Program-made: the position numbers and the translations under genes | Assembly (NCBI GenBank): GCA_052168235.1 | Contig: JBQLZK010000035.1 | Coordinates: 11,696-75,695 of the forward strand | Direction of reading: 5' to 3' | Origin: Thainema sp. | GTDB taxonomy: Bacteria; Cyanobacteriota; Cyanobacteriia; Phormidesmidales; Phormidesmidaceae | Length of the DNA stretch: 64,000 nucleotides | In this document: positions 39,383 to 51,539 of the stretch, in pieces | How the letters are laid out: each line of letters opens with the position of its first letter | Position numbering within the stretch: the stretch's first letter is position 1 | Notes under the pieces: generated by a model | The model's database searches: none | What the model was told of the DNA's origin: nothing | Seen by the model: the letters and a program-made list of their open reading frames with translations, nothing else

Positions 39383-40369
39383 ATGTTCCCCATTCAGCGT
39401 CCTCGTCGTCTCCGCAGCCACCCCCAACTCCGGCGCATGGTGCGTGAAACAATCGTCACCACCAATGATCTGATCTATCCTCTGTTTGCGGTTGCCGGAG
39501 AAGGCATCGCCCAAGAAGTGAAGTCGATGCCGGGTGTCTACCAGCTTTCCATCGACAAGATTGTTGAGGAAGCTAAGGAAGTCTACGATCTCGGTATTTC
39601 CGCCATCATTCTGTTTGGCATTCCCGCCGATAAAGATACAGAGGCCACGGGCGCATGGCACGACCACGGCATCGTTCAGGAAGCATCCCGTGCGGTTAAA
39701 GAGGCAGTGCCTGACCTGATCGTGATTGTGGACACCTGCCTGTGTGAGTACACCTCCCACGGTCACTGCGGCTACTTGGAAGTCGGTGATTTGACTGGAC
39801 GGGTACTGAACGATCCAACGCTGGAACTGCTGAAGAAAACCGCTGTTTCCCAAGCCAAAGCAGGCGCGGACATCATTGCGCCCTCCGGCATGATGGACGG
39901 CTTTGTGCAGGCGATTCGCTCCGGTTTAGACGAAGCTGGATTTACCCATATTCCCATCCTGTCTTACGCGGCCAAATACGCCTCGGCTTACTATGGCCCC
40001 TTTCGCGATGCGGCTGATTCGGCTCCTCAATTTGGCGATCGCAGAACTTATCAAATGGATCCCGGCAACGGCAGAGAAGCGATTAAAGAAATTGAACTCG
40101 ACGTGGCCGAAGGCGCAGACATGCTGATGGTCAAGCCTGCCCTGGCCTACATGGACATCATCTGGCGGGTGAAAGAAGCCTCGAATCTACCCGTTGCGGC
40201 CTACAACGTATCGGGCGAATACTCGATGGTGAAAGCCGCTGCTCTCAACGGTTGGGTTGATGAAGAGAAAGTTGTCATGGAAACGATGACCAGCTTCAAG
40301 CGCTCCGGTGCTGACTTGATTCTCACCTACCACGCCAAAGATGTCGCTCGCTGGCTAGCTGCCAAATAG
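39383..40369 (+). CDS. hemB: Porphobilinogen synthase
   Basis: [24 protein letters not shown] and MVKP motifs. Confidence 0.98.
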
Positions 40370-40450
40370 TTTTCCGTAGATTGCATTCGCGCAGCAATGC
40401 ACCACACTAGGAAGAGTTGCAATATCAATTAAGCTTGCGTCTACCAAGCT

Positions 40451-40539
40451 CCTAGAGAATGCGGATTTAATTAAGGTGAAATCTTTAAGGTAGGGATACG
40501 GCAATGCCGTGTCCCTACTAATTAATCCACAATCCTAAG
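40451..40539. mobile_element. Uninterrupted miniature element carrying a GTAG REP
   Basis: GCGGATTTAAT.AGGTGAAATCTTT..GTAGGGATACGGCAATGCCGTGTCCCTAC..TCCTAAG; the 'empty' version of 28794-29075. Confidence 0.7.
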
Positions 40540-40542
40540 AGC

Positions 40543-40582
40543 AAAAGAAGCCGGATGGTCTCCATTCCATCCGGCTTCTTTT
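40543..40582. terminator. Bidirectional terminator
   Basis: AAAAGAAGCCGGATGG...CCATCCGGCTTCTTTT between convergent genes. Confidence 0.75.
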
Positions 40583-40592
40583 GTTTAGAACC

Positions 40593-40859
40593 TTATGCAC
40601 CAATCAAATCATCCAGTTCATCTAGGGCCTCACAGGTTGGAGCAGTGCTAGCACTAGTTCGCGCTGATGGCATCGGTCGAGCACCCATCGCAGGCGCACC
40701 AGCAGAAAACTGAGGAGTGCGGGCGTACAGGTAATCATCGGAGTAGCGGCGAAAGACGGCTTCCACCGCAGCGCGAGCATTTTTGAGTCCCCATTCAGCG
40801 GCGATCTGCTCGGCTTTTTCGATTACATCTCGGCTGAGTCTTACTTTGTTGTCATGCAT
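40593..40859 (-). CDS. Small ParR-like adaptor candidate
   Basis: RHH-like N-terminus KVRLSRDVIEKAEQIA..., Ala/Pro linker, acidic C-terminal helix EALDELDDLIG; overlaps the upstream ATPase gene by 19 bp. Confidence 0.65.
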   Translation of the reverse strand: MHDNKVRLSRDVIEKAEQIAAEWGLKNARAAVEAVFRRYSDDYLYARTPQFSAGAPAMGARPMPSARTSASTAPTCEALDELDDLIGA

Positions 40860-41893
40860 AGCTGAGTATCTTGAGAAAGTAAAAATAAACCACGAACATT
40901 AGCAAACTGAGGATCGCCCATTACAGTAAACAGCTTGCGTCCCGCCAGTCGCTCTGTAATTAAGTGAGAGCCGCCACCTGTCACTAAGAAGCGGGTCACC
41001 CGCGCCATATAGGGCGTGTATTGGGCTTTCACAGTTTGAAAAATACCTTTGAACCACGGATCGAGATGCTCATCCAGCCAGTCTGACCAGGATAGACCCG
41101 TATCCGCATACACGTGATCAACTCGAAACCCGTCCATCACGATGCTGGGATCAGCACTGGTGCCTAGCGCCATCGTTAACCGCTTGTCAAAGCTGATCGA
41201 AGTCGCTAGCTCATAGGTGCCGCCACGATTCATCACGTTTTCATCAATCACGTCACCTTCCGCATCAATCAACCGCGTTAGCCAGGTGCCGCCGCCGATA
41301 TCGACCACAATCGTGTAGCCGCTATCGGGGATTTGGCCCTCTTTTCTGGCGTGATAGTAGGCACCCATACCTTCCCGCGCGACGGTAATGGTTTGGACAT
41401 CAACCTTGAATTGAATACCATTGCGGACGAATTCGTGCTTGCCTAAAAGCTGCTCTTGAATGGCTTTGCCATGCTTCGCGGGTTCAGGCGTTGAAAGGTA
41501 TAAGTCCAACGGAAATTCTGAAACAACACCATTGATTGGCTCCAAGCAGGCGTAGAGATGGAGACGGGCCAGTTCAACTTTGTTTTCAATCACCGTTTGC
41601 TGCTGACGACGATATTTGTAGGCTTGGGCACCAAAGTGATGACGGCTACCATCGGCTAGCTCAATCAGCGGCGAAGCGTCAGAACAGCGAACGGCATCGC
41701 GACCTTTGGGCAACTGATAGCGAACCGAACGAATCGCTTTGGGATGCCCGGTGCCGTCATAAAATTTGAGGTCATAATTGCCAGCGTCTAGGGCGAGGAT
41801 GCGAGTTGTTTCGGTAGAATTAGGCAAATTCTCTGAGGCAGAGGACGCACTTTTAGTTGTGGTAGTCTTTCTCTGTCGGGTTGCTGTTGTCAT
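40841..41893 (-). CDS. ParM/StbA-family actin-like ATPase
   Basis: Phosphate-1 ALDAGNYDLK, connect-1 REGMGA, phosphate-2 VVDIGGGT, adenosine VTGGGS, connect-2 PQFANVRG. Confidence 0.9.
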   Translation of the reverse strand: MTTATRQRKTTTTKSASSASENLPNSTETTRILALDAGNYDLKFYDGTGHPKAIRSVRYQLPKGRDAVRCSDASPLIELADGSRHHFGAQAYKYRRQQQTVIENKVELARLHLYACLEPINGVVSEFPLDLYLSTPEPAKHGKAIQEQLLGKHEFVRNGIQFKVDVQTITVAREGMGAYYHARKEGQIPDSGYTIVVDIGGGTWLTRLIDAEGDVIDENVMNRGGTYELATSISFDKRLTMALGTSADPSIVMDGFRVDHVYADTGLSWSDWLDEHLDPWFKGIFQTVKAQYTPYMARVTRFLVTGGGSHLITERLAGRKLFTVMGDPQFANVRGLFLLSQDTQLCMTTK

Positions 41894-41934
41894 TGGTTAT
41901 TCCCTGAATCCAATTGTGGAGGTTTGTCCCCAAT

Positions 41935-41974
41935 TAGTACACTTGAACTATATCGCATCTCACGGTTAGGTCAA
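41935..41974 (-). promoter_or_regulatory. Sigma70-type promoter overlapped by a LexA-like palindrome
   Basis: TTGACC-N16-TATAGT on the minus strand (41974-41947); TAGTAC-ACTT-GAACTA at 41935-41950. Confidence 0.55.
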
Positions 41975-42117
41975 GCCTTAACTAAAATTTTTTCGGCTAA
42001 AGCAATTTCCTATCCCTAGCTAGAGAGCTTGCGAGGCTAATTCCTGGTAGGCTTTCCTGAGATTCTGAAAACTGATAATTGGTTTGAAGTTTTGTTAACG
42101 AGTTGGGTGAGGATCAA

Positions 42118-42423
42118 ATGGATGCAGGCGCGATCGCAGCTATCGTTTACGGAGTATTAACCTTTGTCGGCGGCATCATTGGCTATGTCCAGGCCAAAAG
42201 TACACCGTCGCTGATTTCAGGCGTAATCAGCGGGATTTTGCTGATTGCAGGCGGTATTTTGTCTCTCAATGGTGTTGCCTGGGCTGAAACCGCTGCACTG
42301 GTTATTACCGTACTGTTAGTAATCGTTTTTGCTTGGCGATTGATCAAAACCAAGCGATTTTTTCCAGCAGGGTTAATGACAGCTGCGGGGATTGCGGCCA
42401 TTATCGTGATGCTGGCAGGCTAG
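42118..42423 (+). CDS. TMEM14/FAX-family small membrane protein
   Basis: YG.L..VGGIIGY..AKS.PSLISG and T.RFFPAGL motifs. Confidence 0.85.
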   Translation: MDAGAIAAIVYGVLTFVGGIIGYVQAKSTPSLISGVISGILLIAGGILSLNGVAWAETAALVITVLLVIVFAWRLIKTKRFFPAGLMTAAGIAAIIVMLAG

Positions 42424-50666: not shown

Positions 50667-51539
50667 ATGAAGAGCGATCGCGCACATCTTCAGGATATTC
50701 AAGTCGAACAGTTCAAGGAAATTGCTGCCAAGCTTCGCGAAACTCGCGAAACGCAGGGGTTGTCTATTGAACAGCTATCGACAAAAACCTTGATTCAGCG
50801 CCGCTTACTCTATGCCATTGAAGCTGCTGATATTGAACAGCTACCCGAAATGGTATATGTTCGGGGATTTGTTAAACGTTACGCAGAGGCTTTGGGATTA
50901 GATGGCCAAGGAATTGTGGATGTGCTGCCAGTAGAGGGGACAAGCCACAGCATGAAGCCATCTTGGAAGGAGCTTCCAGCGGCGCAGCTCCGACCGCTGC
51001 ATTTGTATCTGCTCTATATTGTGGTAATTGCGCTGGCAGTTGGTGGATTATCCCATTTCCTCCGTCAGGTTGAGTCTCCAACGGTTGCTAATAATTCCAG
51101 TAGTCCGACCACTGCTCCGGCTGAAGTCATTCCAGACCCAGCACCTCAGACCAGCGAGGTTGAAAATACAGCTACCAACAGCAACGGAGAGCAGCCAGCA
51201 GCAACAGCAACTGACGCGGAAAATTCAGACCAGCCAAATGAGTCTACTGTATCTGGGCCAATTCGAGTGGAAGTGAAGCTGACGGCTCAATCGTGGATGC
51301 GTATTACCGTGGATGGCACAACTGAATTTGAAGGTGTCCTGCAAGCTGGTGATGAGCGCACATGGACAGCCAAGGAAGAACTAACGCTACGGGCTGGCAA
51401 TGCGGGCGGAGTGATGGTGGCGTATAACAATGGAGATGCGGAACCGCTTGGAGAACCGGGCAGCGTTGAAGAAATCACCTATCCGCAAACTCAAAGTACC
51501 GCTCGACTCGTGGACGCTGAATCAACTCTCCCCCAGTGA
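50667..51539 (+). CDS. rodZ: RodZ-like protein (HTH, TM, DUF4115)
   Basis: YVRGFVKRYAEALGLD, TM segment, SWMRI..DG and RAGNAG motifs. Confidence 0.85.
   Translation: MKSDRAHLQDIQVEQFKEIAAKLRETRETQGLSIEQLSTKTLIQRRLLYAIEAADIEQLPEMVYVRGFVKRYAEALGLDGQGIVDVLPVEGTSHSMKPSWKELPAAQLRPLHLYLLYIVVIALAVGGLSHFLRQVESPTVANNSSSPTTAPAEVIPDPAPQTSEVENTATNSNGEQPAATATDAENSDQPNESTVSGPIRVEVKLTAQSWMRITVDGTTEFEGVLQAGDERTWTAKEELTLRAGNAGGVMVAYNNGDAEPLGEPGSVEEITYPQTQSTARLVDAESTLPQ

Follow-up and report, generated by a model that had tools for sequence, protein, structure and literature searches.

A ParM-type gene pair on a cyanobacterial chromosome

The window analysed here, a stretch of 64,000 nucleotides from Thainema sp. 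(contig JBQLZK010000035.1 of assembly GCA_052168235.1, an assembly of 7.5 Mb that is 99.99% complete), carries on its minus strand two overlapping genes for an actin-like ATPase of the ParM family and a small ParR-like adaptor. The parM gene (40841..41893, minus) encodes 350 amino acids (aa) and was assigned from the list of open reading frames (ORFs), the ALP_N profile, an AlphaFold2 model and Foldseek matches, while the adaptor gene (40593..40859, minus; 88 aa) was assigned from the ORF list and from its place immediately after parM, which recurs in 83 of 84 orthologous loci. The 3' end of parM overlaps the adaptor gene by 19 nt (40841-40859). A sequence-only reading of this DNA had earlier described an actin-fold protein of this length overlapping an 88-aa gene by 19 bp, and the ORF coordinates, the structural model and the invariant motif residues agree with that description. 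The identity of the pair as a conserved chromosomal ParMR derivative distinct from the cyanobacterial CorMR system is well supported.

The actin-like protein has a divergent actin fold. The Pfam profile ALP_N scores it at 26.4 bits against a cut-off of 26.3, and weak sequence matches lead to the ParM of pSK41 (3js6, E 3e-4) and to Ta0583. The AlphaFold2 model, built on a 60-sequence alignment, reaches a predicted local distance difference test score (pLDDT) of 91 and a predicted template modelling score of 0.84, with residues 1-30 disordered. The top structures returned for it by Foldseek are all ParM-family actins at 13-19% identity, among them Ta0583, pSK41 ParM, the Clostridium botulinum ParMs, the CorM filament 9rmi, Dh-cParM1, Alp12, Alp7A and R1 ParM. 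Of the nucleotide-binding residues, D36, G38, N39, E174, D198 and G306-G307 do not vary across the alignment of 60 sequences, and G200-T203 are at least 90% conserved in it. The disordered N-terminal tail (residues 1-30; 41804..41893, minus; pLDDT 45-66) is basic and rich in Thr, Ser, Ala, Arg and Lys, its first residues forming the conserved motif MTTATRQ(R/K). As measured in 114 of 120 orthologues, the region ahead of the phosphate-1 motif is 7-67 aa long (median 28.5 aa) and has a composition of 23% T, 13% S, 12% R and 7% K with 2.6% D+E, and is likewise A-rich. Relatives at 42-46% identity (P0121-P0128) have short leaders only, of 3-17 aa, and tails of a similar basic, Thr-rich kind are present in several relatives at 34-35% identity (P0133, P0139 and P0140).

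The adaptor has the three parts that had been read from its sequence, namely a ribbon-helix-helix (RHH)-like N-terminus, a flexible linker and an acidic C-terminal helix, and all three recur in 73 aligned orthologues of 82-104 aa. The RHH-like domain (residues 4-46; 40722..40850, minus) consists of a strand, NKVRLS, followed by helices at 10-23 and 28-46, with 27 invariant columns in 40 sequences; residues 3-44 are almost invariant among the 73 orthologues, the invariant positions including R7, L8, S9, D11, V12, K15, A16, W23, G24, L25, K26, N27 and R29. The linker is variable and spans 25-40 residues. It leads to an amphipathic acidic helix (residues 76-87, CEALDELDDLIG; 40599..40634, minus), conserved in the 73-sequence alignment with the consensus CEALDxLDDLL. 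In a monomer model (pLDDT 62), residues 5-9 are extended and helices are predicted at 10-23, 28-46 and 77-87, an order of modelled elements that fits the RHH layout. No significant match that would assign the adaptor to a family was obtained in Pfam, NCBIfam, a PDB profile search or Foldseek; the Foldseek rows to CopG and Arc are weak (root-mean-square deviation 1.3 Å over 34-36 residues, E above 2), and a row to an archaeal histone in these searches has an E-value of 0.19. Basic strand residues, here K5 and R7, and residues such as G24/N27 before the second helix are typical of DNA-binding RHH proteins.

Modelling of the two proteins together supports binding of the adaptor's C-terminal helix to ParM. 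The complex reaches a median ipSAE of 0.71 (runs at 0.71, 0.73 and 0.67), and the best of three controls scores 0.00; the pass mark for this score is attained by 116 of 157 solved complexes and by 2 of 215 mismatched pairs. The runs share at least 94% of their contacts, with a pLDDT of 51-54 for the partner, and in all three the helix (residues 76-87) touches ParM, at residues 282-302 and 315-322. The predicted docking surface thus falls within ParM residues 282-322 (40928..41050, minus). A structure model of the ATPase-partner complex had been proposed along with the sequence-only reading, and its outcome favours helix docking.

Conservation and chromosomal location

A word-indexed search yielded 262 ParM homologues, the best 120 of which are 71-97% identical to the window protein and several of which lie on contigs of 5.5-7.2 Mb. 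Scanning of species-representative genomes gave 156 relatives, the best 80 loci being 70-99% identical to the window ParM. The carriers are named Leptolyngbya, Nodosilinea, Stenomitos, Myxacorys, Tildeniella, Elainellaceae, Oculatellaceae and the like, and the genera in the records are almost all filamentous names; filamentous morphology is characteristic of these genera. Sorted by NCBI order, 78 loci with full-length ORFs fall into Leptolyngbyales (30), Nodosilineales (14), Elainellales (3) and Oculatellales (3), with three more that are Oscillatoriales by name, one in each of five other orders and 20 for which no order is given. Two carrier chromosomes are closed (CP170648, 6.3 Mb, and CP166621, 7.2 Mb), and the ortholog of Nodosilinea nodulosa PCC 7104 lies on a scaffold of 6.1 Mb. 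Among the 72,556 plasmids of PLSDB there is no ParM match at 60% identity or more, the best being one of 46% on a 38-kb Allocoleopsis plasmid. A survey of replicons had been suggested as a check for a recent plasmid remnant; homologues of at least 70% identity were found in genome assemblies, closed chromosomes included, and on none of the PLSDB plasmids.

The rate of change also resembles that of a core gene. The window ParM is 72-79% identical to its copies in four whole genomes, and the same comparison gives 86-90% for HemB and 63-68% for DnaG, so that its divergence, as judged from these alignments, appears housekeeping-like and falls between the two. Terminal branches within the window clade have a median length of 0.035, as against 0.7-1.9 in the plasmid relatives.

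Within the window the pair lies between hemB (39383-40369; PF00490, E 1e-150) and a Tmemb_14 gene (42103-42423; PF03647, E 1e-24), and the wider neighbourhood is of a housekeeping kind, with dnaG, a transketolase-like gene, HU, pilMNQ and two-component regulators. The placement between hemB and TMEM14 had been pointed out from the sequence and is true of this genome, but it is not conserved: hemB, TMEM14 and PhzF follow the pair in 1 of the 84 loci, an arrangement confined to this and one near-identical genome, and conserved hemB/TMEM14 synteny is thereby ruled out. Elsewhere the surroundings are those of other core genes. In 11-14 Nodosilinea-type loci the pair is found among glgC, an AAA_33 kinase-like gene, chlI and ruvC, and in mostly Stenomitos-type loci it is followed by an S9 peptidase gene (6 loci) and by rplI and dnaB (5 loci). 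Position is stable within lineages and among core genes, with only the two genes themselves conserved throughout.

These data bear on whether the pair could be the remnant of an integrated plasmid, integrative and conjugative element (ICE) or prophage, with partition genes that are induced by damage, as happens in some mobile elements, and serve no host function. Such an origin is not without precedent, since ParM-type genes are described on an ICE and on a prophage in the available parts of two studies (PMC4489591, PMC4446434), and here the near relatives include the 38-kb plasmid ParM with its replication-type neighbour DUF3987, the flanks differ between families, and 4 of 46 long loci have a tyrosine-recombinase-like gene beside the pair (L008, L012, L026 and L038; the one at L008:7330-8484, minus, encodes about 380 aa and matches Phage_integrase weakly, at E 2e-6 and 27.9 bits where the cut-off is 27.1). 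It is nevertheless very unlikely for the window pair. No rep, relaxase, integrase or transposase domain, and no mobile-element gene, is found in the 26 ORFs between 23.7 and 59 kb of the window, in keeping with the absence of rep, relaxase and integrase genes reported from the sequence alone; only two genes are conserved and they are set among core genes; and the short terminal branches, the housekeeping-like divergence and the lack of any clade member in PLSDB all argue against a mobile remnant.

Relation to the CorMR system

The available text of two recent reports describes CorMR of Anabaena sp. PCC 7120 (PDB 9rmi) and FcmBC of Nostoc punctiforme (PMC12645912), which are the same system. 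In the accessible part of the CorMR preprint (10.1101/2025.06.27.661541), a single chromosomal capture of a ParMR is inferred, vertically inherited and tied to multicellularity in Nostocales and Oscillatoriales; members of the window clade may have been placed there in mostly-plasmid clades, or may count among FcmB orthologues of low identity in the FcmBC report. Chromosomal ALP_N proteins of 379-400 aa, of the CorM type, were found in five genomes of family f7. At two of these loci (L111 and L113) the CorM-type gene is followed by one for a protein of 161-162 aa that fits the description of CorR in the available preprint text, namely 162 aa, with the first 10 residues containing a helix and residues 150-162 as a C-terminal peptide (10.1101/2025.06.27.661541).

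The window pair is unlike CorM and CorR, as had been supposed in the sequence-only reading. Its ParM is 24% identical to a CorM-type protein over 195 aa (BLASTP, E 0.005), and no sequence similarity was detected between the partner proteins of the two pairs. A maximum-likelihood tree of 127 rows, of the kind proposed earlier as a check against plasmid ParMs and CorM, puts the protein outside the CorM clade: the 15 rows of the window clade and the 14 of the CorM clade form separate groups, with starred support values of 100 and 99, and the window clade is nested among plasmid-type and sporadic ParMs, including that of the Allocoleopsis plasmid, while the CorM clade joins another set of ParMs. 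A single joint clade of window and CorM sequences is rejected by the approximately unbiased (AU) test (delta log-likelihood 103.5, p 0.00017), which was run on 45 rows under LG+G4 with the group defined after the first tree had been seen. Membership of the CorM clade is ruled out by the low identity, the separate starred clades and the AU result taken together. From the nesting of the window clade among plasmid-type ParMs, a second and independent chromosomal capture is therefore inferred, and the suggestion that a second domesticated actin system exists besides CorMR gains support from the chromosomal homologues and the separate clade.

The two systems also differ in what is known or predicted of their membrane attachment. 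Only four residues precede the conserved strand KVRLS of the adaptor, and its residues 1-11 have a mean hydrophobicity of -0.42 and a moment of 0.37 (median of 73), against -0.08 and 0.58 for the first 11 residues of two CorR-type proteins, on a rough hydrophobicity scale rather than by Amphipaseek. Neither the alignment of 73 orthologues nor this comparison of moments gives a CorR-like N-terminal amphipathic helix in the adaptor, and the earlier observation that the partner starts without a membrane-targeting helix stands. Only one open frame of the genome, 270 aa long, matches MinC_C; long MinC proteins, of over 300 aa, are tied to CorMR through an N-terminal helix that binds CorM, according to the available preprint text (10.1101/2025.06.27.661541).

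A CorMR-like role in cell shape is a serious rival for the function of the window pair. The pair would then be a functional analogue of CorMR/FcmBC, a cortical cytoskeleton tethered through the basic tail of ParM or through another partner, with the LexA-type box of its promoter belonging to the LexA regulon of cyanobacteria, which is broad and not strictly of the SOS kind. Like CorMR, the window pair is a ParMR derivative encoded on the chromosome, with an actin that starts in a disordered tail, the named carriers are almost all filamentous genera, and CorMR and FcmBC mutants lose rod shape, as stated in the accessible parts of both reports (10.1101/2025.06.27.661541; PMC12645912). Their distribution is complementary as well: among 401 genomes sampled, strong CorM-type matches (E below 1e-120) were obtained in all 45 genomes of family f7, in all 25 of family f3 and in nine from seven other families, and in none of five genomes carrying the window-type ParM. 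This contrast, however, rests on five genomes of other lineages and may reflect ancestry only. The adaptor moreover has no N-terminal amphipathic helix, its residues 5-9 forming the predicted RHH strand; the MinC frame is not of the long form; and the ParM tail is hydrophilic and basic rather than amphipathic. A cortical shape role seems somewhat unlikely for this pair.

Two further ParM-like genes were noticed in the same genome, at C33:50712-51533 (locus L124, ORF 1348-2475, minus) and C15:43015-43983 (locus L125, ORF 1336-2469, minus). Their products, of 375 and 377 aa, have no N-terminal tail; the first is accompanied by a partner-sized ORF of 205 aa in a frame overlapping the 3' end of the ParM gene, and the second by one of 175 aa (800-1327, minus). 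Both ParMs cluster with similar Nostocales genes as sister to the CorM clade (starred support of 99). Since they add to the window pair, the genome has three ParM-type systems. A PF17989 search of the genome returned no match and missed the window gene (at the cut-off) too, and so does not address copy number.

The promoter and its LexA-box-like palindrome

Upstream of parM lies a sigma-70-type promoter, TTGACC-16 nt-TATAGT (41947..41974, minus), with 10 of 12 consensus matches and a -10 box, TATAGT, that is kept across orthologues. A palindrome resembling a LexA box, AGTTCAAGTGTACT (41936..41949, minus), overlaps this -10 box. The cyanobacterial LexA box has been derived experimentally as RGTACNNNDGTWCB / AGTACWNWTGTACT (PMC3091678), and the 15-nt pattern TAGTWCNNNNGTACT, derived from the window site, occurs once in the 7.5-Mb genome.

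The element is conserved across 81 aligned upstream regions, typically as TATAGTAC-N4-TGTACT. A perfect RGTACNNNDGTWCB is present in 24 of the 81 promoters, against 0.21 expected (mean of 200 shuffles, maximum 2). With up to one mismatch to AGTACN4GTACT the count rises to 49 (0.54 in shuffles), and with up to two it reaches 80 (6.9 in shuffles). At the one-mismatch level the motif is found in 1 of 45 CorM promoters and in none of 23 promoters of other ParMs. Nodosilinea-type promoters hold two or three boxes, the cores after the -10 box starting 18 nt apart.

Other genes of the organism carry the same type of site. Its LexA is a TIGR00498 equivalog (204 bits) in which the Ala-Gly cleavage site and the GDSM and Lys motifs are visible, and lexA itself is preceded by GGTACGCTTGTTCT. 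In all five carrier genomes searched lexA is present, with a perfect box before it in four and a near match in the fifth. The whole genome contains 63 sites with at most one mismatch to AGTACN4GTACT, 23 of them within 250 nt upstream of an ORF. Among 20 box-adjacent ORFs that were annotated are genes for DnaE, a DdrB-like protein, NurA, an SbcC/Rad50-like protein, a Dam-type methylase and a reverse transcriptase (RT)-Cas1 fusion, the other 14 having no obvious tie to DNA metabolism or no family; the ORFs at C3:30281-30745, C9:62243-65899, C47:51997-53148 and C78:17406-18311, both ORFs on C16 and the parM/TMEM14 pair were left out of this annotation. The sites of this class lie 2 nt upstream of the DdrB-like gene (C6:10224-10628), 35 nt upstream of the SbcC/Rad50-like gene (C17:104879-107890), 44 nt upstream of the RT-Cas1 fusion (C9:60037-62013), 91 nt upstream of the NurA gene (C7:65448-66698) and 136 nt upstream of dnaE (C6:4936-8457). 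Boxes before repair-type genes outline a candidate LexA regulon for the window organism, and from these sequence matches LexA control of the parM-adaptor promoter appears probable, if far from certain.

A second promoter-proximal element, TGGGGACAAACCTCCACA (41915..41932, minus), is present in 55 of the 81 upstream regions (45 distinct sequences) after a filter that itself demanded GGG[G/T]AC within about 16 nt downstream of the box. Its halves vary symmetrically between lineages, as GGGGAC-N4-GTCCCC or GGGTAC-N4-GTTCCC. It may be a degenerate second box, a site for the adaptor or a stem-loop in the 5' part of the mRNA.

Centromere-like repeats were sought around the pair and in the genome. 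No tandem or iteron array is present at 40200-42300, where only two-copy repeats at chance level are found. The sequence-only reading had likewise seen no parC iteron array, which holds for this interval, but the promoter does contain a conserved palindrome of the LexA-box type. A genome-wide, centromere-like spread of TGGGGACAAAC, the motif of the second promoter element, is ruled out, with 8 copies against 3.6 expected. Iteron-like arrays do occur upstream of parM in 2 of 81 orthologues, in both cases in the 220 nt upstream, between the boxes and the chosen start codon: locus L014 (L014:1964-2183) has a 14-nt unit in about 6-7 copies and locus L083 a 12-nt unit in about 4 copies. They may be iterons particular to these lineages, or else insertions together with a misassigned start codon.

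The palindromes may alternatively be the module's own centromere and operator, an equivalent of parC that the RHH adaptor would bind for autoregulation and DNA attachment, in which case the likeness to LexA boxes would be coincidental. ParR proteins of type II systems bind repeats that surround their own promoter (as described in the available part of 10.1101/2025.06.27.661541), and the spaced boxes of the Nodosilinea-type promoters, the near-invariance of adaptor domain and boxes alike, and a second palindromic element behind the first that changes symmetrically between lineages would all suit such an operator. The boxes, however, match the experimental cyanobacterial LexA consensus (PMC3091678), and a motif of identical type stands before lexA in four of five carrier genomes and before repair genes in this one. 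Promoters of the clade hold one to three boxes and no iteron array, and the nearest plasmid relative, from Allocoleopsis, has a different operator. In its parM promoter (L172:5866-5905) a TTGACA -35 box is surrounded by a 13-bp inverted repeat without mismatches, AGGAGATTTACCT / AGGTAAATCTCCT. This repeat is probably the operator of its own ParR, and the promoter has no LexA-type box. Conservation alone cannot separate LexA from the adaptor as the binder, because LexA and the adaptor domain are both conserved. Taken as a whole, these comparisons make an operator belonging solely to the module unlikely, and LexA is preferred as the regulator.

A proposed LexA-linked partition-type module

The best explanation is that a type II ParMR of plasmid origin entered the chromosome in lineages of thin filamentous Leptolyngbya-like cyanobacteria, in an event separate from the capture of CorMR/FcmBC, and that the pair is its vertically inherited, LexA-linked descendant; as a complete account this is probable rather than assured. 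The 350-aa ATPase would polymerise with ATP, and the adaptor would dimerise through its RHH domain, its flexible linker offering the acidic C-terminal helix for docking on ParM residues 282-322 in the way that ParR docks on ParM. Docking would couple the filament ends to a cargo held by the N-terminal domain of the adaptor. This cargo is more likely to be DNA than membrane, because the adaptor keeps K5 and R7 and has no membrane helix and because the ParM tail is basic. Both genes would be expressed from the one promoter, whose -10 box is overlapped by the LexA-type operator, so that LexA would probably repress the module, and inactivation of LexA would turn it on. The pair may thus be part of a DNA-damage or LexA regulon rather than a constitutive partition system. 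Tentatively, an actin filament and RHH adaptor induced by damage might serve to move, separate or hold the copies of a polyploid chromosome during repair, or to arrest division; this is one possible function, and a good deal more doubtful than the descent and regulation proposed for the pair.

Several observations weigh against this account. No repeated centromere was found, and a DNA cargo is thereby left without an identified site beyond the promoter region. The window's own box AGTTCAAGTGTACT departs from the published consensus at one position, recA has only a weak box (two mismatches, at -226), and the palindrome could instead be the adaptor's own operator, which is the main alternative to LexA. 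The pass of the complex model may reflect likeness to known structures, because ParM-ParR and CorM-CorR complexes have been solved. With regard to inheritance, flanking genes vary between families and recombinase-like neighbours occur at the four loci named above. Taxon labels on the ParM tree need 15-17 changes where the minimum is 7, a test that is noisy because 'Leptolyngbya' labels and those of metagenome-assembled genomes are unreliable, and vertical descent was judged on this tree and these labels. One member of the organism's own family (G264, 99% complete) has no ParM match, and the module must therefore be dispensable in some relatives. Evidence at the RNA level is weak: three metatranscriptome runs from one study contain contigs about 93% identical across 40598-42200, most matching runs hold small shares, and metatranscriptome runs may hold DNA. 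Contigs assembled from an RNA library are no proof of transcription.

Other features near the pair

A perfect 17-bp inverted repeat (40542..40583, no strand assigned) begins 10 nt past the stop codon of the adaptor gene. It is likely a two-way terminator common to this gene and hemB, and was not picked up by a simple terminator scan. An Rfam scan of 40300-42200 gave no family at an E-value of 1 or below. The gap that separates hemB from the adaptor gene also holds a short element (40472-40518) with a 14-bp inverted repeat (40490-40518). This is a dispersed repeat, found on many contigs with differing flanks in all four sequencing runs compared, and its depths on metatranscriptome contigs reach thousands.

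Some 9 kb from the actin pair, the window encodes a 290-aa protein (50667-51536, plus) with HTH_25 (E 2e-22) and RodZ_C (E 3e-18) domains. This RodZ-like gene is noteworthy because RodZ is called almost absent from cyanobacteria in the available text of the FcmBC report (PMC12645912).

Significance

No description of the window clade, or of a LexA-linked ParM in cyanobacteria, was found in the literature searched. By term search, 'LexA' and 'SOS' are absent from the accessible portion of the CorMR preprint (10.1101/2025.06.27.661541) and from the main text, as far as available, of a paper on genome-encoded ParMs (PMC12270681). The pair would represent a second captured ParMR in cyanobacteria, from another plasmid lineage and with a different adaptor and different wiring (the LexA-type operator), conserved at a housekeeping-like level across Leptolyngbyales, Nodosilineales, Elainellales and Oculatellales. 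Repeated repurposing of ParMR thus becomes a testable case inside one phylum, and a bacterial actin would be linked to the DNA-damage regulon, for which no precedent was found in the same literature. If the proposal is true, this would be the second independent domestication of a ParMR in one phylum and the first SOS-regulated cytomotive filament to serve a bacterial chromosome. Knock-outs, fusions and induction tests are feasible, because the carriers include the cultured Nodosilinea nodulosa PCC 7104, Stenomitos frigidus and Halomicronema hongdechloris.

Comparison with known systems

Plasmid type II ParMRC systems, such as those of R1 and pSK41 (ParM, PDB 3js6), resemble the window pair in the ParM-family fold, the gene order parM-parR, translational coupling, and the layout of the adaptor, in which the RHH domain and the ParM-binding C-terminal helix of the window protein are predicted. 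In contrast to them, the window pair is chromosomal, probably vertically inherited and without a parC iteron array; its ParM has an added basic N-terminal tail and about 14-16% identity to solved ParMs, and its promoter has LexA-type boxes.

Closest in sequence to the window ParM, with 42-46% identity across residues 30-346, are the ParM/StbA pair of the Allocoleopsis franciscana PCC 7113 plasmid pMIC7113.05 (NC_019741.1) and sporadic relatives such as those of Leptolyngbya sp. GB1-A1 and Floridaenema. They belong to the same larger clade as the window ParM, on long, fast-evolving branches. The Allocoleopsis copy lies beside the DUF3987 gene on its 38-kb plasmid; its ParM has no N-terminal tail, the alignment starting at query residue 30. 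The partner there, 109 aa long, begins with an RHH-like part and ends in a helix like that of the window adaptor (NALDALLSA), the helix type being all that the two have in common.

Chromosome-encoded ParMs of Firmicutes (Dh-cParM1, PDB 8x1i, and Cb-cParMR) are likewise chromosomally conserved with RHH-type partners, and functions beyond plasmid segregation are suspected for them, according to the available text on these proteins (PMC12270681). They belong to another phylum and another ParM lineage, the window ParM being 16% identical to 8x1i.

CorMR resembles the window pair in general design, being a chromosomal ParMR derivative of filamentous cyanobacteria in which the actin has a disordered N-terminal tail. 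Its adaptor gene comes next after that of the actin and encodes an RHH-like N-terminal part, a linker without order and a C-terminal helix for actin binding, and there is no iteron array. The window type is found in other cyanobacterial lineages, in a genome where MinC is short (270 aa), and its ParM is 24% identical to the Nostocales CorM-type proteins and 17% to 9rmi, with a basic, Thr-rich tail where that of CorM is near-neutral. Its adaptor has 88 aa in place of the 161-162 aa of CorR-type proteins and lacks both the amphipathic helix and the coiled-coil segment, and its promoters carry the LexA-type box in 49 of 81 cases, as against 1 of 45 for CorM.

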